DNA from: a virus
Length of the DNA stretch: 64,000 bases
Direction: 5' to 3' (one strand)
IMG/VR virus record: IMGVR_UViG_3300020442_000008
Coordinates: 1-64,000 of that record
A model generated the notes under the pieces. The model did not search any database. It saw only the letters and a list, made by a program, of their open reading frames with translations, and was not told the origin of the DNA. The position numbers and the translations under genes were made by a program. This document shows positions 43,305-64,000 of the stretch, piece after piece (position 1 is the stretch's first letter; each line of letters starts with the position of its first letter).

Positions 43305-43308
43305 TTTT

Positions 43309-43395: not shown

Positions 43396-43400
43396 AATAT

Positions 43401-43477: not shown

Positions 43478-43478
43478 T

Positions 43479-44285: not shown

Positions 44286-44309
44286 GAAGTATTGCTCTAG
44301 TGTTAAATT

Positions 44310-45486: not shown

Positions 45487-45532
45487 TTTTTTTACCTTGA
45501 CTAAACCCAAATAATATCATATTATATATAAT

Positions 45533-45886
45533 ATGAAAAACCAAGATCGGATAGAAGAAGCCCTAGAAGAGGGCAATAAAATTGCAGATGAATTAGATAA
45601 ATTAGAAGCCAAAAAATCAAGCTCAAAACCAAAAGCTCTATCAAGAGAATCCCTCATAGAAGAATTAAACGAAATAATAGAAGAAAATGACGGAGTAATG
45701 ATCGAGGATGAAGATATTCTATTTAGCGAATTGGGTTTAGATAGCTTTGGGGCGACAATTTTCTTTCTTGAGTTAGATGATAGGTATAATTATTGCGAAT
45801 CGGAAAGTCAAGAAGATTTTATGAAAAATACAGACTGGAAAAGGTTAAAAGTAAAGACAATTATTGATAACATTTTATGTTCTTAA
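45533..45886 (+). CDS. Acyl carrier protein
   Basis: Acidic, ELGLDSFG phosphopantetheine site, adjacent to a ketosynthase. Confidence 0.75.
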   Translation: MKNQDRIEEALEEGNKIADELDKLEAKKSSSKPKALSRESLIEELNEIIEENDGVMIEDEDILFSELGLDSFGATIFFLELDDRYNYCESESQEDFMKNTDWKRLKVKTIIDNILCS

Positions 45887-46728
45887 AAAGTTACACCCAT
45901 ACAGTTCCGACCTTGGAGCTTGATGATTATTTCGCAATCGAAGGGTTAGATCGGGATTGTAATTTTAATTTATTCTACAGAAAACAGAATAAAGATTTTT
46001 TATCATCAATCGAAGCTAATGATGGTTTAGCAGTTATATATTGTCCACCTATACCTTTTGTTGAAGTCGAGTCGAAAGGCTTGGCTATTAATAAACTTCA
46101 GCACACTCATGCACATAAATATGCTTTTGCATTAAAAAATTGCAGAGTAGATTATCTTGAAATTGAAGGTTCGGCTTGTGCTTCTTCTTTAGCGGGAATA
46201 GGAAAAGCTTATAAATTAATCCATAGTGGTGAATTTAAAGATGTCTTGGTCATTACTGACGAAAGGATAAGTAAAGGGGTTTCCGATTTATTTAAACAAA
46301 TGAAAATTAATATAAAAGCGGGAGATGGTTTCTCCGCTCTACATTTGGTAAAGTCAGAGCCGAAAGATTCATTTATTAAAATCACCGACCCTGCTACGGC
46401 TTATCACTACCATACTAATCCTTGGGCTACAACAGAGGAAGGTTACAGAAAGGTTATCGCAAGCGAAGACTATGAATATATTAAGCCTCATGGAACAGGA
46501 ACAGATGTGAATGATGATTCAGAAAAATATTTATGTGAAAACAAAAAAGTGATGTTATCACCCGAAGGAATGAGGTACAAGGATAAATATGGTCATATGC
46601 AAGGTGCAAGTGGGGCGACAGAAATTTGCCAAATGCTAGAAGAACACGCCAATCTGCCAAGGACTTTGTGCCTAGCTGCGGGTTTGGGTAACTTTTATGC
46701 AGGATTGGTTATAGAAAAAAAATCTTGA
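45877..46728 (+). CDS. Minimal beta-ketoacyl-ACP synthase (FabB/FabF-like)
   Basis: SACASS (Cys), IKPHGTGT.VND (His), YK..YGHMQGASG..E (His), AAGLG. Confidence 0.85.
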   Translation: MFLKSYTHTVPTLELDDYFAIEGLDRDCNFNLFYRKQNKDFLSSIEANDGLAVIYCPPIPFVEVESKGLAINKLQHTHAHKYAFALKNCRVDYLEIEGSACASSLAGIGKAYKLIHSGEFKDVLVITDERISKGVSDLFKQMKINIKAGDGFSALHLVKSEPKDSFIKITDPATAYHYHTNPWATTEEGYRKVIASEDYEYIKPHGTGTDVNDDSEKYLCENKKVMLSPEGMRYKDKYGHMQGASGATEICQMLEEHANLPRTLCLAAGLGNFYAGLVIEKKS

Positions 46729-46759
46729 CTTTTAATTAATAATATCATATATTCATAAT

Positions 46760-47116
46760 ATGAAATACATAATGATTACATTGTTTTTTATGGCGGGGTG
46801 CAATCATGCCCAAAAACAAATGCACAAGGTAGAGGAAAGCCCTCAAGTACCACCCAACCTACCACCCCATGTTATTGAAATAAATAGCGTCCCACATCCA
46901 TTTAATTTAAATGGATACAACCCCTATGTTGTTTGGGTTAATGGTAAGATGATAAAGCTCACATCAAATCAGAAAAAAGAATTGATTAATATAGTTAAAG
47001 CAGAAAACATTAATCCTGTGTCTGATGCAGACCTTCATTCGGGAGACGGATGGCTTCACCCTCTTTATCCTTCTCGTAAATCTTTTGAACTTGTTTTGAA
47101 TGATCTCAACAGATAA
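46760..47116 (+). CDS. Putative lipoprotein
   Basis: FFMAGC lipobox, own leaderless promoter at 46725. Confidence 0.55.
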   Translation: MKYIMITLFFMAGCNHAQKQMHKVEESPQVPPNLPPHVIEINSVPHPFNLNGYNPYVVWVNGKMIKLTSNQKKELINIVKAENINPVSDADLHSGDGWLHPLYPSRKSFELVLNDLNR

Positions 47117-47591
47117 AATTCCAACCATTGAGGGCAATCTTTTAGATTTTCCTTGCGAAATAACTCGCATAGCACATTCTTGCAATACTCATAATGTGAT
47201 GGGGGCGGGAATTGCAAAGCAAATAAAGGATCGCTACCCTAATGCTTACGAGTCTGATTGTCACGCTAGATACGAAGACCAAAATAATTTAGGAAATTGG
47301 AGTTTTGCATGGACGGACTCGACTTGTCAAAGAGGGATTTATAATTTATATACTCAATCTCAAATCGGAGGAAAAAGAGCGGTAAATTACGAAGCTTTTC
47401 ACAAGTCTTTAAGTTTTGTTGCGGAGCATTTGCATTATAATTATTTGCACGGAGAAGATGATGTTATACTCGGCTTGCCCTACGGAATTTCTTGTGGCTT
47501 GGCAGGTGGAAATTGGAATGTTATTTATGAAATGATAAATGATATTTTGGCAGATATGCCCTATCAAACTTTTATAGTGAAATATGATTAG
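47100..47591 (+). CDS. Macrodomain (ADP-ribose processing) protein
   Basis: IEGNLL, IAHSCN...MGAGIAKQI..RYP, NLYTQ, PYGISCGLAGGNW. Confidence 0.88.
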   Translation: MISTDKIPTIEGNLLDFPCEITRIAHSCNTHNVMGAGIAKQIKDRYPNAYESDCHARYEDQNNLGNWSFAWTDSTCQRGIYNLYTQSQIGGKRAVNYEAFHKSLSFVAEHLHYNYLHGEDDVILGLPYGISCGLAGGNWNVIYEMINDILADMPYQTFIVKYD

Positions 47592-48557
47592 TTTAGAGGA
47601 AAGAATAAAAGAAGAAATAAATCGGTTAAGCTCATACCATGATGAAAAGACAATTCATTTAATAAATAATGTATTAAGACCGATGCTTCAATATATAAAA
47701 GATCACGATAGACTTATGAAAGAATTACAAAGAGTTGGGAGTAAACATGGATTATGATATTTGATAACGGAATAAATAATGAATTTGAAGAAGCCCACCA
47801 AAAAGGACTACATAGAGGTTTTGATTTGGGTTGGTCTTATAAAGGTAGATATTATAGACAAATGATAAGAGATATGTTAAATAATAAAGATTACTTAAAA
47901 ACAGGAGAAGCGACTTTAAAAAGGATTTTAAAGAAAATGGAACAAGATAAAGATAATAGAGAGAATATTACAATAAATAGTTGGTAAATAATATGAAATG
48001 TCCTATATCAAATAGAGAAGATTTAATTGACGATTGCCACATAACCATCGAATTTGGATATGGAAGCGATAGAGATTGCAGAACCTATACTTTTTCACCT
48101 GTGCATGATGAGGTTGGCAAAAAGATTTTAGAATATATATCTTCGTTAGCAGAAGATGGTTTCGATGTAGAGGATTACGCTGAAGATGTTATGAATGATA
48201 TTTTTGGTGTCGATCAAGATTGGAGCGATGAAGATAAAAGGGAGCATGGATTAGAATGAAACTATCACTCACATTACACGATAAAACTTATAGCGTTGAA
48301 TCCAACGAAGCCTTTGATGGAACGAATGTCAACGAGCTAACAGAACAATTTAAAGGCTTGCTTGTTAATGCGGGATTTCACCCAAGCAATGTAGATAATA
48401 TGTTCAATACAGAATATCAATGGTTCACCGAAGAAGAAAGGCGAGATAATATGCAGGGACATCTCAAAGAGGAAGATATTATGGAAAAACTTTTGAGAGA
48501 TCGAAAAGTTCAAGAGTTTCAAGATAATTTATATAAACCAGATGAAGATTTTAAACT

Positions 48558-48848
48558 ATGAAAATATGCGAACTAGAAGTAAAAGAAAGTTTCGATGGTG
48601 AATTATATTTTCGTTTACCCGATGACCTATTAAAGAGGTTAGGGTGGGAAGTTGGTGATGAATTAAAATTCATACCACAAGACGAAGCATTTATTATTAA
48701 AAAAGTAAAATATGAAAGCGTTGAACTAGAATTTGATGAGGAAGAATTATTCAAATATATGCAGTTTGCACACGAAAAAGGAATTACATTCAACGAACTT
48801 TGCGAAGAAGCAGTCAAAGCAAAATTAGATGAGAGTGGCATTGAGTAA
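48558..48848 (+). CDS. AbrB/MazE-like DNA-binding protein
   Basis: GELYFRLP..LL..LGW.VGDEL. Confidence 0.6.
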   Translation: MKICELEVKESFDGELYFRLPDDLLKRLGWEVGDELKFIPQDEAFIIKKVKYESVELEFDEEELFKYMQFAHEKGITFNELCEEAVKAKLDESGIE

Positions 48849-49190
48849 AATATTATATCATATTGGAGATTTTATCAGTATCTTTCTTCATTTTAATTTT
48901 TTCAGTTGGTTATATCCATTATATTCTAAAATAATGATTTTAAGTTCTGAGCTTGACAAAGATGGTAAAATATGGTTTAATAAATAAATTATGCACGAAG
49001 CAATGACAGAAGAGATTAATTACCAAAAAGGTTACGATAAAGGGTGGGCAGATGCCCAAGAATATCTTGCTAAAAAATTTGAAAAAATTTTAAGTAAAAA
49101 CGCAAATAAGTCTTACGAAAATGGGTTTAGAGATGGAGCAAATCAAAAAGATAATAAGCCATGTGTTTGTGGCTTTTGGGGTGACAAAAA

Positions 49191-49484
49191 ATGATTAATT
49201 GGATTAATATTGAAGATCAAGTTCCCGAAGAAGGGAAAAGACTACTTTACTTCTTTGAAGGAACAGGTGTTTGGACAGGCTTTTATTATGGTAGGGATGA
49301 AGATTATCCCGATAGAAATAATCATACTTTTGGAAGCAATATAGGCTTTCTAACAGGTGATGTAACTCATTGGTGTTACATTGATTATCCCGAAGGTGGA
49401 GAATGGAGAGAAGAAGCAGACCGAGATTTCTTTGAGCAAGATAAGGAATTAGTAGAGCTTGCGAAACAACCTATAAAAATATGA
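49191..49484 (+). CDS. DUF551-like protein
   Basis: WINIEDQVPE...VTHW. Confidence 0.55.
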   Translation: MINWINIEDQVPEEGKRLLYFFEGTGVWTGFYYGRDEDYPDRNNHTFGSNIGFLTGDVTHWCYIDYPEGGEWREEADRDFFEQDKELVELAKQPIKI

Positions 49485-50145
49485 AAACATTACATAATAC
49501 AAAAAACTGCAATTATAGAAGATACTTGCATAAAAAATTAAAGCACGGCAAAATAAGCGGTAAGTTTTATAAATTTATTTGCAGAAACTTTCCATATCGA
49601 GTTACTACGAGAGAAGTACAAACTGCCGTCAGAATGGTACTCGATGGCAAGATGACTGAAAATAAAGCTATTGCCACTTTGCAAGGAGCAAAAGCAGAAT
49701 TAAAGTATCAACAAGAGTTGTACAAATCAAATATAGAGTGCAGAAAGAAAATTTCAAAAACAACAACTCCATATACAAAACCTTTATAAAAATATTATGC
49801 CATACATACCAAAATCACAAAAACAAAAAGCAGATGACGGAATCATAAAAGATTGCGGATACTTAAATTATTCTATTCACCAATTAATTAATAGATATAT
49901 AGAAATAAATAAAGAGAGCTATCAAACATATAATGATATTATAGGTGCTTTAGATTGTGCTAAAATGGAAATTTATAGAAGACTCGTAGCCAAATATGAA
50001 GATAAAAAAATCCTACAAAATGGGGATGTACCTCCTTACGAAAAATGAAACAAAAGCTAAAAGACATTATAGATTTATTTGGTGCGATAGGAGTAGGTTT
50101 GTTATTGATTTCTTTTCAAATATGGTATATAATTACAGGTAGAGA

Positions 50146-50517
50146 ATGAATAAAAGAAAACCAAAATTTGTAGAGAAGCGTTGGGGATCAGAAACATGGT
50201 TCGCAAATAATGAAACGCATGATTATTGCGGTAAAGTTTTATATATTAAACAAGGGAGTCATACTTCTATGCACTTTCATATACAAAAACATGAAGTTTT
50301 TTATATTTTAAATGGAGTTTTGATTGTTGATTATATAGACACAAATACTGGAAATGTACATTCTGTTACTTTAAATGAGGGAGACTGCATGGATGTAGAG
50401 ATGGGTGAACCTCATCAATTAATTGCTCATGGTGATGGTGTTACGCTTATTGAGGCAAGCACATTTCATAGAGACGAGGATAGTTTTAGGATTCACGATG
50501 AAACGCCAATCAAATAA
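50146..50517 (+). CDS. Cupin (mannose-6-phosphate isomerase-like)
   Basis: VEKRWGSE.W, SMHFH..K.E.FY, PHQL, EAST.H.DED. Confidence 0.8.
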   Translation: MNKRKPKFVEKRWGSETWFANNETHDYCGKVLYIKQGSHTSMHFHIQKHEVFYILNGVLIVDYIDTNTGNVHSVTLNEGDCMDVEMGEPHQLIAHGDGVTLIEASTFHRDEDSFRIHDETPIK

Positions 50518-51182
50518 AAAGACGAACACTAAACCGATTAATAAGTCACAAAATGGCAAAGGAGATTCTCCAAGAAATATATCTGAAGAATTTAAAAAAA
50601 ATTATGAGAAAATTAATTGGAAGAAGAAATGAACTTAATAGAATTGGAAGTTATTTTACTGCTAGGGGGCATTACCCTGTGTTTTTTATATGATTTATTT
50701 AAAAGAAGATGATAAAGTTTGCCAATGATTTTGAAGAATTTTCTTCCCAATCCGAACTCAAAAAAATCTTAAATGAAATATTAGATACTATGGGTGACTA
50801 CCCAAAAGGTAGTGTGCATGGGGGTTTAAGTCCTGTTGCAATAGAAAAAATTATTGCATATATAATGTATAGTGAAAATTGCGACTCATTAGATTTAAAT
50901 ATAACAAAAGCAGATGACGAATATCATCTTAATTTAACAATAAAAGATAAACAATAATGATACAAATAGAAGATTCAAATAACGAAAAATTTTTCATTAA
51001 TCCTTCTCAAGTAATATATGTTAAGGAGAGAATGAATAGGGATGGTACGCTATGGAAAATATTACTTTCCAATGGAGAGTCGATCATAACCAAAAACGAA
51101 CATGGAGCAAATTCTATAATTAATTCAATCACTCCAAAAAAATGATCTTGACAAAAAATAAATTACACCCTACCATTAAACC

Positions 51183-52250
51183 ATGACCAACTTAGGACTC
51201 ACTTGCATCAGCGAAGAACTCAAAGCTAAAGATAAAGCAAAATATTCTTTTCGCACAATGACTCGCAAGCGTTTCAATGATCTATCAGAAAAGGAAGGAA
51301 GAAATGAAGCTATTAAAGAATTGTCTGAACGCATTTATCACAATGTGCTTGTTACTCGTTATATTGTTCGCCATTGTATTCGGAACTCTATATGTCATTA
51401 TCGTCTCAGTTCTGCTCTCTTTCCTTTGCTTACCGATGCAACTTTGGACTTATCACTTGAACTATTACCCGATAAAGTCAAGATCGAAAATGAGCTAATA
51501 AAAATTGGCTTAATAGCTAAAAAATTTAACCTTTCAATCGGTTCGCATCCCGATCAATTCAATGTTCTTGCTTCTACTAATGAAACATCAGTAAATAGAA
51601 CTATTAACGAACTAAATTTTCAATCGAGAGTATTTGATTTAATTGGCTTGCCTCAAACGCATCAAGCACCAATGAACATTCATATCAATGGTACTCCGCC
51701 CGAAATTAAATCAGACACAACTGATCCCGACTCTATTAATAATATGCGTATCAAAGAAATGGCAGAAAGATTTTATAATAATTTGATGCGTTGTGATGAA
51801 GGTGTTTTTAATCGACTAACTATTGAGAACGAAGACAAGGGTTTTTGGAATGTAGATAATATAATTAAGTTTAGTGAATATATATTTAACAAATATAATC
51901 TTAATATTCCTGTTTGTTATGACAATCTGCATGATTTTTGCAATCCATCAGAAGAACGCAATATTATATTTCAAGCAGAGCGTTGTGCATATACATGGGT
52001 AGATCAAGATGATGGAGAATTCATTGCTCCTGTTTTTCATTGGTCAGAAGGTAAGCCCGAAAAACCAAGATCACACGCAGACTACTTTGCACTAGGAAAT
52101 TATCCACCCACTATTGCCATCGAACCAAATAGTGAAGCCAAGTGGGAATGTGAAGTTAAGCTTAAAGATATTGCCATACGAACACTTGTAAAAGGAATGA
52201 AATACAGATATTCAAGAAATATGCTTGACAACAAAGAGCAATTAGTCTAA
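51183..52250 (+). CDS. uvsE: UV-damage endonuclease (UvdE/UvsE)
   Basis: LGLTC, YRLSS.LFP, HPDQFNVLAS, NIH, RLTIENED, YDNLH, HWSE, HADY, EVK.KD. Confidence 0.9.
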   Translation: MTNLGLTCISEELKAKDKAKYSFRTMTRKRFNDLSEKEGRNEAIKELSERIYHNVLVTRYIVRHCIRNSICHYRLSSALFPLLTDATLDLSLELLPDKVKIENELIKIGLIAKKFNLSIGSHPDQFNVLASTNETSVNRTINELNFQSRVFDLIGLPQTHQAPMNIHINGTPPEIKSDTTDPDSINNMRIKEMAERFYNNLMRCDEGVFNRLTIENEDKGFWNVDNIIKFSEYIFNKYNLNIPVCYDNLHDFCNPSEERNIIFQAERCAYTWVDQDDGEFIAPVFHWSEGKPEKPRSHADYFALGNYPPTIAIEPNSEAKWECEVKLKDIAIRTLVKGMKYRYSRNMLDNKEQLV

Positions 52251-52259
52251 GGTTATATT

Positions 52260-55200
52260 ATGCACGAAAACATTACAGAAGAAAAATTTTGGTACGACTC
52301 TTACACAGGAACTTATTGGCTTGCAGATGAAGAATGGGAAGAGCCTAGAGAGTTCACAGAAGACGAATTAATATCAGAAGGAATCTACCTTAACGAATTT
52401 TGCATCAATGAGCATTTATAATATAGAAGTTCCGATTACGGAACAAGAATTGGAAGAGATGATGATGGAAGATAAATCTTTTTCTTGGGTTTTTAATACG
52501 AGCGAAGATGATTCCGTTTCAATTAATGTAAATATTTTTAAAGAAGAATATGACGGCTGAAATAATAGGTGACGATTATCCAACTTATGAAGATTTTGTC
52601 AACATGAGACAACCTAAAATATACACTCGCTTTAAACTAGAAGAATGTATTACCGCTCTTTATCAAATATCAGAAGATATTGAAGCCATGATGCACAAAG
52701 AATTTGATACAGAAGAAGGATTAACAGAAGATGGCAAAATGAATATTTTAATAGGCATGATGGAGTTGCATAAAGTTAGATGCGATGCAACTAAAGAATG
52801 TATGGAAGGTTTAATTAAACAAGGAGACTTAAAATGAATATAGTAAAAGCATTAGAATTAGTTATAGAAGAGGCTGAATTTTCTCTTGCATCAAAAAAAG
52901 AAGTATCTATTGCTAAAAATAGTGCTTTAGTTTTATGTAAAGAATTTTTAGAATTTACAAAAGCAACGGAAGAGGGTTTGTCTACTAAGAAACCCGACTT
53001 TACTCCCGATCCACCTAAACAAAAAATACATGAATCTTGAAGAAGCATTTTCAATAGTTTTAAATGAGGCAGAAATATCTGCTTTAGGAGAGCGTTCGGA
53101 TTATCATTTTGCAGTCATTAAAGCAACTGAAGTTTTGCGTTCCTTTTACGAAGATCATGGGCATCATTTTAAAAATTATGAGAAAGAAGAACACGAAAAT
53201 GTTACCAACTAAAAGATATTTGCATGATTGTTGGGAAACAGGTTTCCCTTTAAAACCTAAAAATTTAAGAACCTTTTACCCAAATAAATTCATCAGAAAA
53301 AGATATTCTTATGCTTTTTGGAAAGATATTATTAATGATTTAAATATATTGCCATATAAAAAGAGAATTGAAGTGGCGAGTAATTTATTTAAAAGATTAG
53401 ATCATCGAAATAAATTTCATAGTGAAAAGCAAGCAAGCTTTGAATTAGAATCAATGGCTTTCTGTTTACTAGAATCAGAGGGATTAATAAAAGAATGAGC
53501 GACTACTCAACAATAGAAGGTTGCATAAGACAATCTTGTGACATAAAAATAAAAACCAAATTAATAAATAAAATGGACTTAAATAAAATAATAATTAATG
53601 TTCTTGAGAAATATCAAGACTCTCAACCCAATATGGCAAGCGAATCTTTTAGAAAGATATTAGCAAAAGAGATAGAGGTAGAGGTAGACAAATACTGCCT
53701 TATGCTAATGAATTCATTAAATGGTTGACAACTGAATAAAATACTATATTATTAATTATATGAAACAAATAAATGTAAATAAATATATTATTGGAAAGAA
53801 AAAGCTAGGCAAAGGAAAGGTCGGACACAAAGGTGGAGTCGGTAGTCCAACAGGTGCTTTTGGCAATGGAAGCAAATATAACAAGCGAAAGAAATGAACC
53901 AACAAACTTTAAAAAATATAATTAGGTTTCTGCATGAGACAGAATATGATGATGAAAGAGACAGAGAACAACATATTAAAGTTGTAGAAAATATTTTAAA
54001 GAGTGAATCATGCAAGAAGAAATAAAAGATCATTGGAAACATATCAAAGATATTGAAGCGGAGCTTGAATTTCTTTATGTCAGAGAACCCGATGAAGTTG
54101 AATATATTAATCAGTTAAAAAATAAGCTTGACAATTTATACGAGATAATAGATAATTATAACCATGAAACTAACTAAATATCAAAAAGCTAGATTGCTTG
54201 AATATAATTGGGATATTATTACCAATCAAATAGATGGAGAAGAACAGAATTGCTCATGGGTCAGTATTGCACCCGAAGATGGTTCTATATATGGAGAAGT
54301 CGTGAAACATTTTAAGTTATCGGGGGATGGCGAAGATGTTAAATTATTGGTAGTAGCAACTGCTGAAGACTAATGAGCGAAATAAGAGAATTATGGGATT
54401 TGTCATGGACAGATGGATTGATTTTAACTTTGATGTTAATGGCACTATATACATATAAAGTATGGATAGATAACAAATTTAAAAAATGAATTTTATCAAA
54501 AGATTATTGCGTATATATAATTTAAAAAAGTTTTGTTCTTTTAAAATAAGTTCAGAACCAAAATTATCTGCACAACAAATAGATGAATTGATTGAAATAA
54601 ATAAAGAAGCATTAACAAATATAGGAGACGATATGGATTACGATGGGATGGGAAATCATGGTCGCTTTCCACCCGAAAGAAAATGAAGAATTTAATTATT
54701 ATATTTTTATGTTTGACAACTTTCAGTTGTTCAAATAGACTTAAACCCGAAGATACCAAGTTGTCAAGGTCATTAGAAATGCAACAAGAAATCAATGATT
54801 TACTAGAGCAAGATGCACAAAATAAAGCATTAGAGAAAGAGTATTTAGAAGAGATAAGAATTGCGGAAGAAAATAATGACCAAGAAGCATTTAAATTTTA
54901 TTTATCAGAATATGTTAAAGTAGAAAGATTAAAACTGCCCGAATGGATAAAGAAAGAACCAAATTATGTTAAGGGTGGATTAAATATAAAATATTAAAAT
55001 GAATATAGATAAAACTCCAATCAGTAAATATATATTAATAGATACAATGGCTAAACCTTCGTATGCTTACCTTGGTTACGCTTATTTAACGCAAAATGAA
55101 AAAAGCATAAAAAATCGTGCGTTTAAAATGAATCGAGCAAATAAGAAATATATATTACAAGAAGATTGGAAATGAAAATACAATTAGGAATAAGAGGTAG

Positions 55201-55933
55201 TGAGGATGCAATTAATCATATTTTAATTAAAATAGATGATCTTGTATTAATGAATAAAGATAATTTATTTCTTTCGGGCGAAGAGAGTAGAATTCAAATA
55301 GGAAAAGGCATTGAAGCTTTACTTGATTCTTTATCTAAAGATCACGAAATATGTGTTAGTGAAAAAGCATCTGACTTAATAGAGCAAGAATTAAATATGA
55401 AGAAAGGTACATTAAATAAATGGAAAAATTAATTATAGTATTTTTAGTAGGGGCAGTAATCTCTTTTGGCTTTACATTATATCTTTTATTTAAAAGTTAA
55501 TTATGAAAAGAGTAGAAGAAGTAAATAGAGAAAAAGTTTTATCTCAAATAATAGATCATTGCAAGGAACTTCTGAAAGATGGAGAATTTCTGTCTAAAAA
55601 CGATTGGCAGACAGATACGCTCTTACTTCATTCAGAGAAATTTCTCAAGCAAGAAAAAAAAGCTTGACACTATCGCTTGCCTAGTCTAGTATTATTACTA
55701 TGAACACGGCACAAGCTTTCTTAAATAGTATTAACGAGTCAATCGCTCAAGGCGAGAAGATTGCAAACTCAATTCCTCGCAAGGGTCTTAACATTTACCT
55801 AGACAAATCAACTATGGTTATGCAACAATTCCACGATCCTAGTGCTTTTGACAAGGCAAAGCAAGCAACTGCTCGTAAAGGTCAATCAAGTATTCTTAGG
55901 ATGCAAATGGATGGAAATGGCAGATTGCAATAA
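52260..55933 (+). other. Array of short early-type hypothetical ORFs, including lipoprotein 54683..54997
   Basis: Dense same-strand ORFs, several with their own TTGACA promoters (52225, 53725, 54128, 55664). Confidence 0.6.
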
Positions 55934-55973
55934 AAAGCTTGACATCATCAAAAAACTCTGACAGACTACAATC

Positions 55974-57161
55974 ATGCAAACACTAGAAAAACTTTACAAA
56001 ATAGACTCTAAGGGTCGCCTTAGAGAATGGACAATGCACATTAATCGTGATACATTTTTTGCGGTTAAAGGTTTGGTCGGCATGAAGCTGACAGAAGACA
56101 AACCTACATTTTGTACTGCTAAAAATATAGGCAGAAGTAATGAGACTACTGATGAAGAGCAGACAATCCTAGAAGCAAAAGCTAAGTGGGAAAAGAAACT
56201 CAAAGAGGGTTACGCAAAGACTCCCGAAGAGGCAGAGACGAGATCGTATTTTGATCCTATGCTTGCACAATCTTATGATGATCGCAAGTCAGAAGTCGAA
56301 GAGGCATACAAACAAGGTGTAGTTTATTGTCAACCAAAACTAGATGGTATTCGTTGCATTGTGCGTAAAGAAGGTAATGATGTTGTTGCTAGAACTCGCA
56401 ATGGTAGACTCATTGATGCAATCCCTCATATCACCAAGGAATTAAGTCCTTATTTTAAAAATAATGACAAACTCGTTCTTGATGGAGAATTATATAATCA
56501 CGATTTAAAACATGATTTTAATAAAATAGTTTCATTAGTAAGAAAGCAAAAACCTAGTAAAACTAAATCAGATACAGATAAATCTTTTCAAAAGAAATTA
56601 GATAAGTTCGATAAAGCACTAAAAGAATCTAAATCTCTTGTACAATATTGGATATATGATATACCCAAGAGTGACTCGTTTAAATGTAGAAATCTTTTTT
56701 CGGAGCGTTTCTTTGCTGAAGATATATTTGAAAGTGATTCTATTAAATTCGTTAAGACTCAAGTTGCATTTGATAATGATGATCTTGATGATATATATAA
56801 ACGATATGTCGGTAGTGGATACGAAGGTCAAATGATCCGCATTAATTCGGGTTATGAGCAAGGCAAGCGTAGTGCAAAACTATTAAAGCGTAAAGATTTT
56901 ATGGATGCAGAGTATCTTGTGACAGATATTGAAGAGGGTAATGGCAATCGTAGTGGTACTGCGAAACATCTTGTTTGTTATTGTCCTAAAATGGATACGC
57001 ATTTCAATTCAAATATTAAAGGTAATTTTGATTATCTAGCAGAAATCCTAGAGAATCGTGAATACTATATTGGTAAATATGCAACGATTAAGTTTTTTGA
57101 GCTTACTCCCGATGGTATTCCTAGATTTCCTTACGCACTTTCTTTCAGAGATTACGAGTAA
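55974..57161 (+). CDS. lig: ATP-dependent DNA ligase
   Basis: PMLA, QPKLDGIRC (KxDG), LDGELY, YEGQMIR, KRS..LLKRK, GIPRFP. Confidence 0.93.
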   Translation: MQTLEKLYKIDSKGRLREWTMHINRDTFFAVKGLVGMKLTEDKPTFCTAKNIGRSNETTDEEQTILEAKAKWEKKLKEGYAKTPEEAETRSYFDPMLAQSYDDRKSEVEEAYKQGVVYCQPKLDGIRCIVRKEGNDVVARTRNGRLIDAIPHITKELSPYFKNNDKLVLDGELYNHDLKHDFNKIVSLVRKQKPSKTKSDTDKSFQKKLDKFDKALKESKSLVQYWIYDIPKSDSFKCRNLFSERFFAEDIFESDSIKFVKTQVAFDNDDLDDIYKRYVGSGYEGQMIRINSGYEQGKRSAKLLKRKDFMDAEYLVTDIEEGNGNRSGTAKHLVCYCPKMDTHFNSNIKGNFDYLAEILENREYYIGKYATIKFFELTPDGIPRFPYALSFRDYE

Positions 57162-57176
57162 ATTCGTTCTTAACTA

Positions 57177-57205
57177 GCTTATAATGAGAGGGTTATAAGC
57201 ATTTT
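57177..57205 (+). terminator. Hairpin after the ligase (possible terminator)
   Basis: GCTTATAA-TGAGAGGG-TTATAAGC followed by ATTTT. Confidence 0.45.
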
Positions 57206-57254
57206 CACAAAAAAGCTTGACAAGCAAGCAGTTTTCCTCAATACTTATTCTATC

Positions 57255-58025
57255 ATGCAAATCACACTTACAGAAAAATCAACTCAATTTGAATTAACGA
57301 ATAGTTTCGATCAACTATTATTTCCATTTAAGCATACGCTTGAGCAAGCGAAGGCAGTTCAGAAAACGAATCAACTGAAAGAAGTTGATCGCTTTTTTAA
57401 CAACCTTACACTTCGTCTTGTTAAAGAAGGTGAAGATTATTGGGAATCATTAATTCCCAAGAACGATGCAGAAATGTTTGGTCGTTGGGTATTCGCTATT
57501 ATGAGCGTTCACACTACTTGGGAAAGTAATGTGCGTGGATACGAAATCGCAATGAGCGATTTATCATGGACAATTTCCAAAGATGCGTTGCGTGACATGA
57601 TTGTCAAAGCAAAGGTTGGTCTTTATGAGCGTAGAGAAAGAGGTTTGTGGGACTTGGCAACCAAGTTCAGAGAAAACCCCGATCAGTTCAAGAAGCAAGA
57701 TGACGAGACATGGCAAGAATGTCGCAATCGCTTGATTGGTACGATCTATGGACTTGGCAATGCAAAGACAACTTATGCTCTGTCTTTGAGTTATCCAACA
57801 GAGTCGCAACTTTGTTGCTTGGATGTTCACTTGTTACGCTTCATGGGGCATGATCTCAAGAAGGGTCACGCTAGTTCACTAGAAGCATATCAAGAAATGG
57901 AAAACGAGTGGCTTGCTCGTTGCGACAAGTATGGAGTGTCTCCAAATGTTGCTAGAGAAATTTATTGGAACAAAGTTCAAGGCAGAAGGAACTCACGCTA
58001 TTGGAGTTACTGCCTCGAAAAATAA
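57255..58025 (+). CDS. Helix-hairpin-helix DNA glycosylase-like protein
   Basis: F.IMS..T..E, IYGLGNAKT (HhH), CLDVHLLRF (catalytic Asp), Y..ME..W. Confidence 0.7.
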   Translation: MQITLTEKSTQFELTNSFDQLLFPFKHTLEQAKAVQKTNQLKEVDRFFNNLTLRLVKEGEDYWESLIPKNDAEMFGRWVFAIMSVHTTWESNVRGYEIAMSDLSWTISKDALRDMIVKAKVGLYERRERGLWDLATKFRENPDQFKKQDDETWQECRNRLIGTIYGLGNAKTTYALSLSYPTESQLCCLDVHLLRFMGHDLKKGHASSLEAYQEMENEWLARCDKYGVSPNVAREIYWNKVQGRRNSRYWSYCLEK

Positions 58026-58065
58026 TTTTCTTGACATTCAACATTAATCAGTCATACTTAACATT

Positions 58066-58644
58066 ATGAATTATTGGAATACAAAGCAAATACATTGGCA
58101 TGACTTCACTTCTGAAGATATTTTTATTAAAAGAAATAGAGTTAGTAGTCAATTTGAAGATGAAATTCAAACTGCATCATATAAAACCAAAAGTGGTTTC
58201 GTAAGTTTCCTAACAGATGGAAATGGTCGTAACCAATATGGTAGGATGGTTAAAAGAGCAGTTGGAGTTTGTGTTCGATTACATGGATTAAAGGATAATT
58301 ATCCTTGTGCAGAGATTGACTTCGTAAAATATAATATCAACAAGAAATATTCTAATGGAGCAAACAAGTGGACTTCGCCTAATGCTATTGCATATATAAC
58401 AAGCAATCATCAGCATGGACAATACAAGCGTGATCCGATTAGTGGTGATTGGGTTATGGACTATGATCCGCTTGTCGCTAGGGATGACGAAGGTTATCAA
58501 GTTCACTTTTCGGCAAATCAATCTCAATATGGTGGAGATCGTAGAGAGTGCCAAGAAATGCTAGATATATCTTGGGCAGTCGTAGACTTTCTTGTAGAGA
58601 AAGTTTTACCATCTAAAAGAAATGCCTTGACAATGGTTGCGTAA
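58066..58644 (+). CDS. Hypothetical protein
   Basis: 192-aa ORF with leaderless promoter at 58031. Confidence 0.7.
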   Translation: MNYWNTKQIHWHDFTSEDIFIKRNRVSSQFEDEIQTASYKTKSGFVSFLTDGNGRNQYGRMVKRAVGVCVRLHGLKDNYPCAEIDFVKYNINKKYSNGANKWTSPNAIAYITSNHQHGQYKRDPISGDWVMDYDPLVARDDEGYQVHFSANQSQYGGDRRECQEMLDISWAVVDFLVEKVLPSKRNALTMVA

Positions 58645-58661
58645 TCTGATTGAATACTATT

Positions 58662-58961
58662 ATGACACAAAAAGAGGAAAGACAAATTGCAGAAATTCGC
58701 CAAGCTCACTTGGATAGAATTCAAGAACTAAAAGAAATGATAGCAGAAATGCACCCCGAAGCACTCTTTGCAGATGGTTTTGATCGCTCGATCATGGGTT
58801 ACGATAAAGATGGCAGAGTAATCTACTCTGTTGACTCTATTGTCGAGACTCTTGTAGAGCGTGATGGAATGGATTGGGAAGAAGCTTCAGAACATTTCAG
58901 CTTTAACATAGAAGGTGCTTATGTTGGGGAATACACTCCAATCTATATGTACGAAAATTAG
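58662..58961 (+). CDS. Conserved phage hypothetical protein
   Basis: ADGFD..I.G...RVIYS...L..RDGM..EEA.E.F.FNI.GAYVGE.TP motif. Confidence 0.7.
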   Translation: MTQKEERQIAEIRQAHLDRIQELKEMIAEMHPEALFADGFDRSIMGYDKDGRVIYSVDSIVETLVERDGMDWEEASEHFSFNIEGAYVGEYTPIYMYEN

Positions 58962-59201
58962 TGTAAATATATTAACAAAATGAACAAGCTAAAAGAACTT
59001 ATTAATTTAAAAATAGAAGAGATAGAGAACCTTGAAATTGACACTCAAGAAAACGAAGAAAGATACATCCATGAGATTAACTGCTTAGTATATACTAAGT
59101 ATTTACTCTTCGGTGACGAAAATCTTCTCGTTGACTAAAAAAAGTGTTGACATTCAACCAAAATCTGTCAAACTCATTATATAACACTTAGAAAAACTAT
59201 T

Positions 59202-61493
59202 ATGATTATCACACAAGAAAAATCCAAACGAGTCGTATCGTCTCACGATTTCGATTCAGTAAATTGTACCATTGATGCAGAAGATATGCGTTATGTCGCT
59301 TCTCTTCTTCGCAACAACTATTCTAATCCACCTCTCGCAGTTGTGCGTGAGATTAGTGCTAACGCACTAGACGCAAACAAGGAAGCTAATGCTACTCGTA
59401 AAGTAGAGATTACTCTTCCTTCCAAGTTTCAGCCAAACTTTTGCGTTCGTGATTTTGGTAGTGGCTTGAGCAAAGAAGATGTCTTCGGTTTGTATTCAAA
59501 ATATGGTAAAAGCACTAAGCGTAATTCCAATTCGTATATCGGTGCTTTCGGTATTGGCAAGTTTGCCCCATTGTCTTATGGGAATAATTTCACTTGCGTT
59601 TCGTATCATGGTGGAACTAAATCTTCTTATAATATTTTCGTTAATGAAGATGATGATACCAAGATTGTTGAAATGCACCAAGAACCTTCCAACGAACCAA
59701 GTGGTTTGTCGGTAGAAGTTGCTATTGCAGATGAAGATGTAGACAAATTCAGAGAAATTGTCAAAGCGTTCTTTCGTTTCTTTAGCGAAGATGAAATGCC
59801 AAAATTTATTGGCATTGGTGATGACGAACAATTTTTCGACAAGTATGATGTTGTGCTTCAATCCAAAGATGATTCTTGGTTCATCATTGATGACAAACAA
59901 GACTATTGGAGAAGAAGTCATTCGCAATCTCATGCTTTCATGGGCAGAGTGCATTATCCTATCAATACGAATTCTATTGACTTCAAGAATTATGTAGAAG
60001 AGGACTATGACTATGCACCTCTAAAGAATCTATGTGATGAAGATAATGTTTACCTTCGATTCGATATTGGAGAGCTAAAACTACATCATAGTCGTGAGTC
60101 TTTAGAGTATAACAAAGCTACACAAAAAGCTATTGTAGAACATCTTAGGAAAATGTACGATGACATTCAAGAGATTGCCAAGGAAAAACTTGGTGGAGCA
60201 ACTTGCCTATGGGATGCAAAAGCAAAGTATGCACAAGTTATCAATGCTTTGCCATATCAGTTAAGAAGTATTTTTCAGAACTCTTTTAAGTGGAAAGGTA
60301 TTCCAATTTTGGGTGCAACTTTCCATAGAAGTTATCATTACAATGAAAATATTATCATTACTGAATATACTAAAAGCGAAGACAAGGATGTTACTGATGG
60401 ATATAAAGTAAAAAGTCAAAAATCAAGTAGGATAGATGTTCACAAGAACAACCGATTGGTTCTACAAGACATTAAATCCTCTCATGGCAATGCTTTACGA
60501 GCAAGAACTATATTCAATACTGACGATTCTATTGTTGCAGTTTATGTTGTTTCTTACGATAAAAGTGGTGAGACATATATGTTCAATGATGAAGATGGTT
60601 GGCAACTCAACCTTGTCTCTGATGAAAATATATCCTATACTAGCAATATCGAGAAAGCTAAACTAAAGCAAGGAACTAGATCAAGTGGCGAATCACGCTC
60701 ATCCGTTCCAACCTTTCTATACGATCCGCAAGGATATAGAAATTCCGATCAATGGAAGAATGGTGCAGAACGAGACGATCTTGAAGAAGAACTAGATGAT
60801 GATTCACAACTTGTATATATTTCCATTAGTAATTATAAACCAAGTGGAGAAAGTGCTACTGATTTTTATAGCTTAGATTCTCTCAAGCGTGACTACAAGG
60901 GCATGAAAGCTTTGCTTAAAAACTTGGATGAACCTATGATTGATCTGCATGGAATTCGTAAGGCAGATGTTTCCAAGCTTGACAAGTCAAAATGGATTGA
61001 ATGGCAAGATTATCGTATTCGCAAAGCTAAGGGTGCATTGCTTCGCAGAAAAGCTGATATATTGCGTGGAGAGCGTAGACTTGCTTATACAGAGCATCGA
61101 CATGAAATGTCTCATGTGAAAAGTATTGAAGGGTTACTAGCGAATAAGAGCCTTAAAAATATTTTAAACAATAGTCTTGACAAAAACCATGATGTCAGAG
61201 AAGCAATGAATATTCTTGCAGATTCTCAACTAGAAGATGTTGTTGTGTCCACATTGAGTCAACTCAAAAAGTTAGTACATGATAACGATAAAGATTGGTT
61301 CGACAAGAATTTCTCTTCTACATATAAATGGAAAAGCTTTGACTATCTTTGCAAAGATATTTCAGATAAGTACCCATTACTTGTGAACATAAATTCACAA
61401 GTTTACGGATGGGCAAATCTATCCGAATCAAATTTCGGAAAGAACATTGCTGATTATATTTCTATGTGTGATAAGCTAGGGGAAGAGGCATGA
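59202..61493 (+). CDS. rIIA: rIIA-like protein (N-terminal GHKL ATPase)
   Basis: YSNP..AVVREIS.NA.DA, VRDFG.GLS, Y..STKR.SN..IG.FGIGK.AP.SY. Followed by rIIB. Confidence 0.88.
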   Translation: MIITQEKSKRVVSSHDFDSVNCTIDAEDMRYVASLLRNNYSNPPLAVVREISANALDANKEANATRKVEITLPSKFQPNFCVRDFGSGLSKEDVFGLYSKYGKSTKRNSNSYIGAFGIGKFAPLSYGNNFTCVSYHGGTKSSYNIFVNEDDDTKIVEMHQEPSNEPSGLSVEVAIADEDVDKFREIVKAFFRFFSEDEMPKFIGIGDDEQFFDKYDVVLQSKDDSWFIIDDKQDYWRRSHSQSHAFMGRVHYPINTNSIDFKNYVEEDYDYAPLKNLCDEDNVYLRFDIGELKLHHSRESLEYNKATQKAIVEHLRKMYDDIQEIAKEKLGGATCLWDAKAKYAQVINALPYQLRSIFQNSFKWKGIPILGATFHRSYHYNENIIITEYTKSEDKDVTDGYKVKSQKSSRIDVHKNNRLVLQDIKSSHGNALRARTIFNTDDSIVAVYVVSYDKSGETYMFNDEDGWQLNLVSDENISYTSNIEKAKLKQGTRSSGESRSSVPTFLYDPQGYRNSDQWKNGAERDDLEEELDDDSQLVYISISNYKPSGESATDFYSLDSLKRDYKGMKALLKNLDEPMIDLHGIRKADVSKLDKSKWIEWQDYRIRKAKGALLRRKADILRGERRLAYTEHRHEMSHVKSIEGLLANKSLKNILNNSLDKNHDVREAMNILADSQLEDVVVSTLSQLKKLVHDNDKDWFDKNFSSTYKWKSFDYLCKDISDKYPLLVNINSQVYGWANLSESNFGKNIADYISMCDKLGEEA

Positions 61494-61518
61494 AAATGCC
61501 TCTCCCCGAAACTTTTTT
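61479..61518 (+). terminator. Hairpin overlapping the rIIA stop (possible terminator)
   Basis: GGGGA(A)GAGGCAT-GAAA-ATGCCTCTCCCC followed by GAAACTTTTTT. Confidence 0.55.
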
Positions 61519-61573
61519 CTTGACTTTAACTACAATTTCAAATACTATTATATACAACGAAAGATAAAAAATT

Positions 61574-62647
61574 ATGAATGAAAAATTAGCGTACAACTTG
61601 AGTGAAGATTCCATTACTATCTTTTACGATGGAAAACCATACACGATCCGCAAAGACAATGCAAACTTCTCTGCCTTGCGTTCAGCGATTTTTGAGGGAA
61701 GGTTTGATGATGTTCCCGAATTGCTTGATGTCAAAAAGGCAATCGAAGATTTTGTCGAAGGTGATGTCGAGGTTAGAGATGAGGTCTTATATTACAAAGG
61801 CAAGCATAGACTACATGGTGTTGTTGTTGACAAGCTATTGGATATGTTGCGTAGTGGCATGAAGGATTCTACTCCGATGACCAATTACATTGGTCGGCTC
61901 ATGCAGAACCCATCATCCAATTCTGTTGATGAACTTTATACCTTTCTTGGTTATCGGTCTTTGCCAATTACTCCCGAAGGGAAAGTGTTGGGCTACAAAG
62001 GTGTTCAAGCGGATTATTGGAGCAACACAGGTAATGCGGATACAATCGTATTACAAGGTGAAACCAACGAGAGGCATCAAATCTACAATGGTGTTGGTGA
62101 AACGATTGAGATTCAGCGTAGAAGTTGTGATGACAACAAAGATCATCATTGCTCTCATGGGTTGCATATCGGTTCGTATGATTATGCTAATAATTGGGCA
62201 TCATCTGATGGTAAATTGCTTCTTGTGGAGTTTGATCCCCAAGATGCAGTCTCCGTTCCAACCGATTGTGAATTTCAAAAATTAAGGGTTTGCAAGTACA
62301 AAGTGGTTGCAGACATTAGTGACTCTCGCCAAGAGCTAGATAAGGTAGTCTACGAGGCTAATAAGCCTATCTATGGTTCTGATTCAGATTTAGATGATTC
62401 TGAAATCGAAGGAGAGTGGGAAGAAGACCAAGACGATGCAGATTTCGTTTCCAAGCTTGAAGTCAAAAACTATATTGAAAATAAGTTAGAAAGAGGAGAA
62501 GAAGTTACTCTTAAACTTATATCTTCATTGAAGGTTTGTCGGGAAGAAGGTTGGAGAGTAAGGGATGTTGCAGTTCTTGTTGAAGAACTTGGTTTCGATC
62601 TCGATGAAGACCAAAACGACATCATGTCAAATTGGAAGGTTTCATAA
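61574..62647 (+). CDS. rIIB: rIIB-like protein
   Basis: NPS..SVDELY.FL...LPIT.EG..L.YK.V, R...DDN...CS.GLH, V.VP.D....KLRVCKY.V. Confidence 0.9.
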   Translation: MNEKLAYNLSEDSITIFYDGKPYTIRKDNANFSALRSAIFEGRFDDVPELLDVKKAIEDFVEGDVEVRDEVLYYKGKHRLHGVVVDKLLDMLRSGMKDSTPMTNYIGRLMQNPSSNSVDELYTFLGYRSLPITPEGKVLGYKGVQADYWSNTGNADTIVLQGETNERHQIYNGVGETIEIQRRSCDDNKDHHCSHGLHIGSYDYANNWASSDGKLLLVEFDPQDAVSVPTDCEFQKLRVCKYKVVADISDSRQELDKVVYEANKPIYGSDSDLDDSEIEGEWEEDQDDADFVSKLEVKNYIENKLERGEEVTLKLISSLKVCREEGWRVRDVAVLVEELGFDLDEDQNDIMSNWKVS

Positions 62648-63128
62648 TGGACTCAACTCTACAAAAGAACGAATTGTTTGTTTCTCTTAGCAATGCGAAT
62701 TCAGTAGAAGTTGATGCTTCATGGGCAATTCTTAAATACAAGGAAATTGGTATTTACAGAAAGGTTGCTTGTTTGAGTTCCCTATTCAACTTGGACTTTG
62801 AGAGCGTACTAGATACGCTCCCGAAGGACGATGAGGGTAGATTATTGGACTACAAGACAAGGCACTTAATCCATGACGCATTACTTCTAGTATCGTGAGC
62901 GAAGAAGCAGAAGCATATATTCACAAACTCCAATCAGAACTAACTCAAATAATTCAAAAGATTTGCAAGTCTTATGATGATGTTATGAGTCAAGAGCAAG
63001 TTAATGAATACTTGGGTTATCTGATTGAGTCGTTAGAATATTTTCATAAAAGAGGAAACTATCAACGCATGGCATACGATTTGCGAAACGCAATAAATTT
63101 TCTGCCATCAGCATTTCCAACAAATTAA
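62647..63128 (+). other. Two short hypothetical ORFs (62647..62898, 62895..63128)
   Basis: Translationally coupled to rIIB. Confidence 0.55.
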
Positions 63129-63169
63129 TTCTTGACTTTCGGGGCAAATTAAAATAGGATATATATATT

Positions 63170-63580
63170 ATGGGATTAGATCAATACGCTTATAGCAAAG
63201 ATTCAAAAGGAGAAGAGGTAGAACTCGCTTATTGGAGAAAGCACAATCGCCTACAAGGATGGATGGAAGAACTTTGGGAAGCTAAAGGCAGACCAAACTA
63301 CAAACCAACCAATAATGGGGGTCTAGGAGACTTTAATTGCGTGAATCTCTATTTAAGCTTGGAAGACCTTGACGATCTTGAAGAAGTCGTTTGTGCGAAA
63401 GCTTTACCCGAAACTTGCGGATTCTTCTTTGGTGAGGATTCTTTCTCTTGGGAAAATAAAGATGGAGAACAACATAAAGGTTATGATTATTTCTACAAGG
63501 AACTAGATATGGAATTCATAGAAAAAGCTAGAGATGAAATTAATAAAGGAAAAAAAGTATTCTATACTTGTTGGTGGTAA
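63170..63580 (+). CDS. Conserved phage protein (MGLD..Y / YWRK family)
   Basis: MGLDQYAY...ELAYWRKHN.L.GWM...LPETCGFFFG...FYTCWW. Confidence 0.75.
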   Translation: MGLDQYAYSKDSKGEEVELAYWRKHNRLQGWMEELWEAKGRPNYKPTNNGGLGDFNCVNLYLSLEDLDDLEEVVCAKALPETCGFFFGEDSFSWENKDGEQHKGYDYFYKELDMEFIEKARDEINKGKKVFYTCWW

Positions 63581-63679
63581 ATATGTATTCAATAAATATA
63601 ATAGAATTAATAAATAATATATTTATAGGATTAGGTTTGACGGCACTTTTAATATTTGTTTTATTTTTAGCATTTACTT

Positions 63680-63892
63680 ATGATGACTAAAAACAAAGAA
63701 AGAGAATTACTAGATAATATATATAATATAGAGAACGAATTAAAGATAATTGAAAAAGAATTGGATTACATAATCGACAATGCTCCCGAAGATGGGGCAG
63801 TCGCAGAACTCCTAGAGATCGAGCGAGGATACCTTTTGTCGGAACTTGAGATCACCAAGGATTCTTATATGTTACTTACCAAAGATAAATAA
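63680..63892 (+). CDS. Hypothetical protein
   Basis: 70-aa helical ORF. Confidence 0.5.
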   Translation: MMTKNKERELLDNIYNIENELKIIEKELDYIIDNAPEDGAVAELLEIERGYLLSELEITKDSYMLLTKDK

Positions 63893-64000
63893 CTAAATTC
63901 TATATACAATATATATATAAGACTAATATAACAACAAATAACACACTTATTATATTACTTGATTTATTTTAAGTTAATGAATATTATTAATTTATATATA

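Follow-up and report, generated by a model that had tools for sequence, protein, structure and literature searches.

Why should one part of a phage genome lack short DNA words that are plentiful in the rest of it? The question is raised by the window analyzed here, the 64,000-nucleotide stretch formed by positions 1-64,000 of the IMG/VR record IMGVR_UViG_3300020442_000008, whose parent contig of 128,598 bases continues 64.6 kb beyond it. A sequence-only reading of the window had noticed a scarcity of CCAG/CTGG past ~45.9 kb and had explained it as first-entering DNA purged of host-defense motifs. Part of that proposal stands: a real regional purge was found in early-type genes, and avoidance of defense targets is its best explanation, whereas the genome end that it placed nearby and a target restricted to CCWGG or CCAG were not borne out. 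With a probability of roughly 0.6, we propose that host-restriction targets have been selected out of early, probably first-entering DNA, as in the leading regions of T5 and T7-like phages.

Word counts were compared with two expectations. Synonymous-codon shuffles (n=300) were applied to the open reading frames (ORFs) of 45,900-65,000, keeping the proteins and the local codon usage, and a local maximal-order Markov model served as the second expectation; the contig carries 194 ORFs as called by a simple greedy rule, and figures written a/b are observed/expected. Exact counting confirmed the scarcity. The whole window holds 142 CCAG and 135 CTGG, the final sites ahead of the gap being a CCAG at 44569 and a CTGG at 45835; past ~45.9 kb only CCAG 48538 and CTGG 50348 remain, with none in 50,349-64,000. 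These 2 sites in 45,901-64,000 compare with 38.7 under the Markov model and 108 at the rate of positions 1-45,900, and the codon-preserving shuffles of 45,900-65,000 gave an expectation of 49.1 (standard deviation 5.3, minimum 36). Palindromes were similarly affected in the same shuffles (ACGT 0/33.8, GCGC 0/15.0, CGCG 1/13.9, GGCC 0/8.2, CCGG 0/5.8). The sequence-only reading was also right that CCGG and GGCC are absent from 51-64 kb, the last of each lying at 41802 and 40330, respectively, and that GATC is frequent there, at a steady 10-15 per 4 kb. Control words stood at expectation (GATC 54/55.4, AGCT 58/60.1, TCGA 46/55.1, and CCAT/ATGG likewise), TGCA and GCAG were normal or enriched in the purged region, and CCAA/TTGG, one step from CCAG/CTGG, was enriched (202 vs 164 expected from shuffles). 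Neither counts near expectation nor equal depletion across the genome was seen; the depletion is regional and goes beyond composition and codon usage.

Codon choice shows how the words are lost. In the block ORFs, proline before a G-initial codon is encoded by CCA in 1 of 32 cases and by CCC in 23 of 32, in agreement with the suspected avoidance of CCA-G through CCC; CCA is used for 62 of 132 prolines before non-G codons in the block and for 137 of 298 prolines before G outside it. Both orientations are low (CCAG 5/29.6, CTGG 8/36.8, CACTG 0/8.2, CAGTG 0/7.2) despite the location of 61 of 65 ORFs on the + strand, which indicates that the target is duplex DNA and not mRNA. GC content varies little, from 0.30 to 0.37, with slightly lower values in part of the block, and glutamine is encoded by CAA at a frequency of 0.90 in the block vs 0.67. 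The purge is synonymous and context-dependent, acts on both strands and lies within early-type genes.

The avoided set is wider than CCWGG or CCAG, including ACGT, GCGC, CGCG, GGCC, CCGG, CASTG, GGWCC and several 6-mers, and extends well beyond the window. The site-free runs, in contig coordinates, and the subdivisions drawn from them are the following:

35974..76657: run free of ACGT
39800..67630: run free of GCGC
40330..69515: run free of GGCC
42735..71062: run free of CCWGG
40473..81798: run free of GGWCC
46675..67103: run free of GCWGC
40788..67950: run free of CASTG
About 40.85-79.4 kb of the contig, window part 40850..64000: palindrome-purged block, from site-free runs and shuffles
50349..64000 in the window, up to 65,026 on the contig: CCAG/CTGG-free core (0/29.9 in 50.35-65 kb)
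40850..50348: transition zone, with CCAG/CTGG merely thinned (11/25.8), ACGT 0/10.9 and GCGC 0/9.7

Among the 637 CCAG/CTGG sites of the contig, the longest site-free run is 50348..65027 (approximate ln p -66). Shuffles of 40,850-67,050 gave ACGT 0/44, GCGC 0/22, CGCG 1/18 and GGCC 0/11, and the 6-mers ATGCAT (1/14), TCATGA (1/12) and CAATTG (1/12) were also low. One of the transition-zone CCAG/CTGG sites (43355) sits within a tRNA-Leu gene. To the right, CCAG depletion extends to about 67.5 kb and palindrome depletion to about 79.4 kb: with hairpin repeats masked, 67.5-79.4 kb has ACGT 2/30, GCGC 2/19, GGCC 1/15 and CCGG 2/11, and CCAG is just halved (16/30). Immediately to the left, 36-40.8 kb has an ordinary site density (CCAG 23/26.9, GCGC 7/6.6). 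Outside the block the counts are near expectation (CCAG 139/129 and 311/287; GCGC 42/40 and 78/75), and three control blocks of similar size showed no comparable purge, CCGG alone being mildly low (8/26, 11/36, 8/26) and ACGT weakly low outside the block, less so than CCGG.

The masked repeats are eight copies of a ~58-nt hairpin element, placed between small early ORFs at contig 67649-77379. The element has a GACTT-N32-AAGTC core, a GC-rich interior and outer arms ATCAAAGACTTA/TAAGTCTTTGAT, with predicted RNA folds of -23 to -36 kcal/mol, and the eight copies contain nearly all CCGG, GGCC and GCGC of 67.5-79.4 kb. It is absent from the two relatives G001 and G002 (described below) and could represent terminators, RNase III-type processing sites or operator cassettes. 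As a separate observation, GGAGG/CCTCC is missing over contig 50031-65802 (15.8 kb; 149 sites genome-wide), which may reflect either another avoided word or a different ribosome-binding style in early genes.

The place of the purge was found to be conserved in relatives, which were collected by way of the terminase, located outside the block at 103.8 kb, and of a gene within the core:

59202..61493, + strand: rIIA-like gene (tblastn, 25-29% identity to rIIA genes annotated in T4-like phages and others)

The rIIA set comprises 64 IMG/VR loci with 37-85% identity, each taken +/-10 kb around rIIA; for the terminase, at least 585 matching stretches exist in IMG/VR, of which 80 were fetched and the 46 of at least 10 kb were used. 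A word was counted as purged at 25% or less of the Markov expectation, with denominators that differ by word. Around rIIA, purging was found for CCAG in 53/64 loci, ACGT in 45/62, GGCC in 33/41, GCGC in 30/57, CGCG in 26/54, CCGG in 11/16 and GATC in 5/64; around the terminase, the figures were 0/46 for CCAG and ACGT, 0/45 for GGCC and GCGC, 0/44 for CGCG and 4/41 for CCGG. Many rIIA loci have 15-22 kb free of all seven words, and all seven contigs that carry both loci are purged beside rIIA and not beside the terminase. Synteny and purging of the block persist in relatives down to 42% rIIA identity. In G001 (125.7 kb), the corresponding block is purged of the same words, with CCAG absent at 84.3-104.3 kb and low from 72 kb. 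In G002 (103.8 kb, GC 43%), the syntenic purge affects CCGG (a 31.5-kb gap; 207 sites genome-wide), GGCC, CGCG, ACGT, GATC and GCWGC, and CCAG and GCGC are not purged. The place of the purge is conserved, and its word list is lineage-specific.

No cultured relative was found among 50,697 phage records, in which a tblastn search with the terminase gave 118 matches, all below 60% identity and the best at 23-27%, from Bacillus, Clostridioides and Microcystis phages. By homology of the terminase, this phage is not T5-like: the organisms named for the matches (Bacillus, Lactococcus, Clostridioides, Clostridium, Staphylococcus and others) include neither Escherichia nor Tequintavirus.

The probable hosts provide a further view of the avoided words. 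To the left of the block, a host-like gene pair at window 36530..40176 (+ strand) encodes PSCyt2/PSD1 (764 residues) and DUF1501 (436 residues) proteins (Pfam), such pairs being characteristic of Planctomycetota and Verrucomicrobiota. Counterparts of the phage DUF1501 gene with 72-80% identity occur at 22 loci in metagenome-assembled genomes (MAGs) of marine Opitutia/Opitutales, and the copy in G001 is 66% identical; judging by these sequences, marine Opitutales (Verrucomicrobiota) are the likely hosts. Words were counted in the first three contigs of each of five DUF1501-matching MAGs (276 kb; 136 strand-symmetric 4-mers). The most depleted 4-mers in 5/5 MAGs were ACGT (108/324, 0.33), GCGC (138/318, 0.43; 0.26-0.53 across the five) and GGCC (491/717, 0.68), and GATC, TCGA, CATG and CCAG were near 1 (CCAG 0.86-1.03), in agreement with the flanks of the 22 DUF1501 loci. 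In addition, 5/5 MAGs encode an M.HhaI-like C5 methylase of 326-349 residues, found in only 20/301 sampled genomes of the order; in the one that was compared with the PDB, residues 6-318 of 330 align to M.HhaI (10mh, E 7e-109). It presumably has GCGC specificity and a cognate nuclease. Thus, the words that the likely hosts avoid most strongly are three of the purged palindromes, which, together with the M.HhaI-like methylase, points to host systems. A 487-residue ORF in an Opitutales MAG (L262:2-1462, - strand), which overlaps the methylase stop by one base and has no Pfam or NCBIfam match, is a candidate for the cognate nuclease of the GCGC system. The hosts also carry a second C5 methylase, to which no specificity could be assigned, and CCAG-specific methylases exist elsewhere (PMC10689673, excerpt).

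The gene content of the block is consistent with early function. The stretch 40.8-72.4 kb lies entirely on the + strand and contains many small ORFs of unknown function. Matches to sigma-70-like promoters, counted as consensus matches only, are enriched at 64-82 kb (99 vs 52.4 in shuffles), are densest at 64-72 kb (+) and 72-80 kb (-), and amount to roughly one per small ORF. With its many small ORFs and dense promoter matches, the block looks early; structural genes, such as the terminase, and replication genes, such as the polymerase at 113-116 kb, are found outside it. Features of the window part of the block, in addition to rIIA, are these:

43229..43477, + strand: tRNA-Thr, tRNA-Leu and tRNA-Arg (ARAGORN and Rfam)
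44536..45486, + strand: clamp-loader-like ATPase (phrog_168, E 3.5e-18)
51183..52250, + strand: UvdE-type ultraviolet-damage endonuclease (PF03851, E 2.8e-33; phrog_8420)
53725-53752, + strand: near-consensus sigma-70-like promoter in the core, TTGACA-16-TATTAT (consensus match only)
54128-54156, + strand: the same, TTGACA-17-GATAAT (consensus match only)
54155-54184, - strand: the same, TTGATA-18-TATAAT (consensus match only)
55974..57161, + strand: ATP-dependent DNA ligase, in the CCAG-free core (phrog_114, E 2.5e-73; PF01068)
57255..58025, + strand: weak Ogg-HhH-like glycosylase (PF22175, E 3.3e-5, under the curated cut-off), with a paralogue at contig 66881-67462
58066..58644, + strand: most conserved unknown ORF of the block, present in 50/64 rIIA loci
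61574..62647, + strand: conserved ORF downstream of rIIA, in 60/64 loci, with no Pfam match

The block also holds phosphatase, DUF932 and GP88 ORFs (PHROG/Pfam). By its position alone, ORF 61574..62647 may have an rIIB-like role. For ORF 58066-58644, the AlphaFold2 model (predicted local distance difference test score, pLDDT, 84.8) gave no Foldseek match in the PDB at E<=1e-3 and a top VIA-align Z of 5.2, and no function could be assigned.

Since the same words occur at normal density elsewhere, the block alone seems to be exposed unprotected to restriction. On this reading, the ~40.85-79.4 kb segment would be the early-gene block of an uncultured marine Opitutales phage, from which selection, mostly synonymous, would strip short duplex words read by host restriction-modification or a similar defense. 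The block would enter first, or long before the remainder, through injection that is slow or proceeds in stages; it would be transcribed by host RNA polymerase, and the gene products would neutralize or outlast restriction until the remaining DNA arrives. What we infer from the data is that restriction exerts the selection, that entry is staged, that the genome has fixed ends and that an early function is protective. Regional avoidance of defense targets, taken together with the precedents in T5 and murciaviruses, favors staged or slow entry.

These precedents are close in logic and differ in detail. T5-like phages are restricted only if they carry sites in the first-step-transfer region, and the T5 terminal repeats measure ~9.7 kb (PMC10644984, excerpts). 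The T5/BF23 first-step-transfer DNA shares with the present block the absence of sites from one segment and their presence elsewhere, although tolerance of those other sites is deduced here from their normal density alone, as well as numerous small early genes, transcribed (here presumably) by host polymerase, and the adjoining repeat-rich stretch (same excerpts). Here, however, the segment occupies ~38 kb of a 128.6-kb contig in an internal position, many 4-mers are purged at once, no long terminal repeat was seen, and two-step injection is presumed. Murciaviruses are restricted only when the first-injected region contains a type I motif, and their authors argue that regional avoidance is sensible only for fixed-end phages, not under headful packaging (PMC12455610, excerpts). 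In the Murciavirus/Mme2I leading region, as proposed here, motif position decides sensitivity and selection acts on first-injected DNA with anti-defense genes; that case, however, turns on a single bipartite type I motif of a ~40-kb podovirus, whereas many short, mostly palindromic type II-like words are involved here, in a large phage (same excerpts). The first-entering DNA of conjugative elements likewise carries anti-defense genes and is poor in restriction targets (PMC12455610, excerpts; cf. preprint 10.1101/2025.04.03.647016), but these are another kind of element and enter as single strands by conjugation. Genome-wide avoidance of palindromes by phages involves the same 4-6 bp type II words and mostly synonymous changes; in the present genome it is one block that is affected, the only words low elsewhere being CCGG and, to a lesser degree, ACGT. 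The principle is thus already known, and this is an unusually clean, multi-word, family-wide example of it in an uncultured marine phage group.

Several observations weigh against first entry and restriction avoidance. The block is internal on the contig map and, at ~38 kb, greatly exceeds the first-step-transfer region of T5, which makes up about 8% of the T5 genome. The strongest CCAG purge (50-65 kb) is in mid-block and not at an edge, a poor fit to a simple gradient from one entering end. The hairpin repeats at 67.5-79.4 kb hold clusters of CCGG, GGCC and GCGC, which would be targets if exposed. CCAG, CCGG and CGCG are undepleted in the candidate host genomes, and the CCAG purge is near-universal across relatives, down to 42% rIIA identity. 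Finally, no genome terminus or terminal repeat was found on the contig, the order of entry being presumed only, and no anti-restriction family was recognized among the ORFs searched.

The last two points deserve detail. A genome end or terminal repeat just to the right of the window had been predicted, but the contig runs on for 64.6 kb, the purge continues, and no terminal repeat was found. A scan for 25-mer repeats gave only local repeats and none joining the contig ends, as far as the assembly goes, from which a collapsed repeat could escape. In the relatives, contig ends accumulate near rIIA: 27/64 lie within 5.1 kb vs 8.6 expected, and among contigs of at least 170 kb the figure is 5/13 vs 0.7. 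In the closest large relative, the contig breaks off precisely at the start of a manA RNA element, with ~2.2 kb missing and a depth peak there in two DNA runs. The ends of one relative's contig overlap by 161 nt (one mismatch) and those of another by 468 nt at 88% identity. Four of 24 public runs, all in assembled form, were compared with 60-80 kb; they revealed no termini but many indel joints at 64-78 kb, marking a hypervariable region. Because of the manA break, the 161-nt overlap and the hypervariability and repeats, the pile-up near rIIA may consist of assembly breaks, and as a sign of physical termini it is suggestive only. Two RNA libraries contain identical short contigs for 60-80 kb, which is not proof of transcription. 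CRISPR (clustered regularly interspaced short palindromic repeat) spacers were considered as a marker of the first-injected end and rejected: a 20-kb piece of the block gave 25-49-nt matches at 78-96% identity in 301 Opitutales genomes, and the four best had no repeat arrays.

With respect to the source itself, the contig is classed as 'linear' in IMG/VR with a CheckV completeness estimate of 95%, and its ends fall within a repeat-rich ORF of 1442 residues. Six relatives (G306, G312, G314, G319, G322 and G327; loci L006, L017, L019, L034, L044 and L061) measure 200-214 kb, have a single terminase gene and are estimated to be complete. The closest of them has 204,906 bp vs 128,598 bp here, with rIIA 81% and terminase 78% identical; given this larger size, the 95% estimate may be too high. 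The manA motif is present here too, in an intergenic gap of the block (contig 65966-66176, + strand; RF01745, 84.4 bits), and in the blocks of the relatives at L270, L273 and L274.

As for a protective gene, the sequence-only reading had expected an anti-restriction gene among the small ORFs. No known family was recognized in 20 ORFs with PHROGs, in Pfam scans or in six-frame searches for Ocr and ArdA. The 20 ORFs, from 62.6-79.5 kb, matched only PHROG families of unknown function and one Hsp20. ArdA was not found in six frames by a search whose control did recover Bacteroides thetaiotaomicron, and Ocr (PF08684) and a T7-type RNA polymerase (PF00940) were not found in six-frame searches run without a positive control. 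No phage DNA methylase of PF00145, PF01555 or PF02086 was found on the contig. Several small ORFs are very acidic (e.g., contig 68840-69109, isoelectric point 4.05). A giant ORF of 3847 residues lies at contig 83392-94935 (+ strand), and tblastn found no homologue of it in G001 or G002; considered as an N4-like virion RNA polymerase, it gave no PHROG match, a sub-threshold DUF4214 only and no PDB sequence match at E<=1.

Among the other explanations, the one that survives best, although we consider it unlikely, is that the whole genome enters at once and that the block is an early module which must stay intact, with ligase, repair genes and unknown inhibitors, in order to rescue the rest of the DNA, whether already cut or open to cutting. 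The CCAG-free core lies centrally, not terminally, and holds the ATP-dependent ligase, UvdE and the weak glycosylase-like gene, and such a module needs no fixed ends and may well be internal on the map. Ligase-dependent tolerance of EcoRI and Cas12a cuts has been described in PhiKMV-like phages, and by analogy the ligase of the purged core could explain why outside sites are tolerated (preprint 10.64898/2026.09.21.753257, excerpts). However, a ligase occurs near rIIA in just 23/64 relatives (loci spanning +/-10 kb only) and none was found in G002, a genome with an evident purged block and an estimated completeness of 79%. Furthermore, ~600 CCAG/CTGG and hundreds of other sites lie outside the block, and DNA cut simultaneously into hundreds of fragments would seem difficult to mend.

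It is less probable still that the purge guards against early nucleases encoded by the phage itself, which would degrade host DNA at these words with a specificity inherited within the phage lineage. In favor of this idea, the CCAG purge was found in 53/64 loci of very divergent relatives and candidate hosts do not avoid CCAG, and a purge reaching relatives as distant as 42% rIIA identity is more easily explained by a phage-inherited factor than by ever-changing host restriction. T5 itself degrades host DNA in the first-step stage, and how its own DNA is spared is given as unknown (PMC10644984, excerpts). But at least seven unrelated words would call for several sequence-specific nucleases, and the searched ORFs gave UvdE, the ligase and the weak glycosylase-like gene only; ACGT, GCGC and GGCC are words avoided by hosts that carry an M.HhaI-like methylase; and staged entry would still be required to spare the remaining genome.

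A regional mutational process, such as methyl-cytosine deamination or transcription-associated damage, is very improbable. Every strongly purged word includes both C and G and looks like a typical cytosine-methylase site, and the excess of CCAA/TTGG is what such a process might leave behind. A bias, however, does not give complete absence (ACGT 0/44; CCAG/CTGG 0 over 14.7 kb), nor does it spare GATC, TCGA, AGCT, TGCA and GCAG, which are normal or enriched; moreover, motif sets switch between lineages, and the use of CCC when G follows bears the mark of selection. It is hardly credible, in spite of the slightly lower GC and the CAA preference, that the pattern is an artefact produced by composition, by amino-acid content or by recent acquisition of the block from a genome-wide avoider, since shuffles and the Markov model still expect tens of sites and the block is syntenic and purged in distant relatives whose terminase regions, on the same contigs, are normal. 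Shuffles, strand symmetry and relatives together exclude composition, codon usage, RNA-level selection and a recent mosaic origin.

Returning to selection by restriction on early DNA, a stronger version of it may be put forward tentatively, as a possibility that we rather doubt: the block would be a very large (at least 38 kb) segment resembling first-step-transfer DNA, conserved in abundant marine Opitutales phages of 100-214 kb, and its word list would be a negative imprint of host defenses. Restriction acting on first-exposed DNA has been shown experimentally in few model phages (T5-like, T7-like), and the same logic is visible here in raw sequence. If the main reading, selection by restriction on early DNA, holds, part of the host restriction repertoire could be read from the phage alone, the early or first-entering DNA of uncultured phages could be located by computation and fixed vs random packaged ends predicted, a CCAG-directed system would be indicated in marine Verrucomicrobiota, and the conserved small early genes (e.g., 58066-58644, 55700-55933, 55166-55432 and the acidic contig 68840-69109) would become candidates for new anti-restriction functions. 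In the stronger version, scanning uncultured phages for regional purges might reveal entry polarity and host defenses in general, and the near-universal loss of CCAG/CTGG would signal a widespread uncharacterized CCAG-targeting defense in marine Verrucomicrobiota or a phage-inherited CCAG-specific nuclease.

Other observations concern the left part of the block and its surroundings. An auxiliary cluster of envelope/lipid type lies at window 41992-47116 (+ strand) and encodes a beta-helix protein, a hexapeptide transferase, a weak acyl-carrier-like protein and a FabH/KAS III-like protein; a cupin is encoded at 50146-50517. Several of these genes are missing at the syntenic place in G001 and G002. 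In this newer-looking part (41992-47116), palindromes are gone and CCAG is lost in part only. Further to the left, a full-length transfer-messenger RNA gene was identified at window 20600-20957 (+ strand; Rfam RF00023, 145.7 bits), with the ARAGORN tag peptide AKNINSVEPFVSEELALAA.

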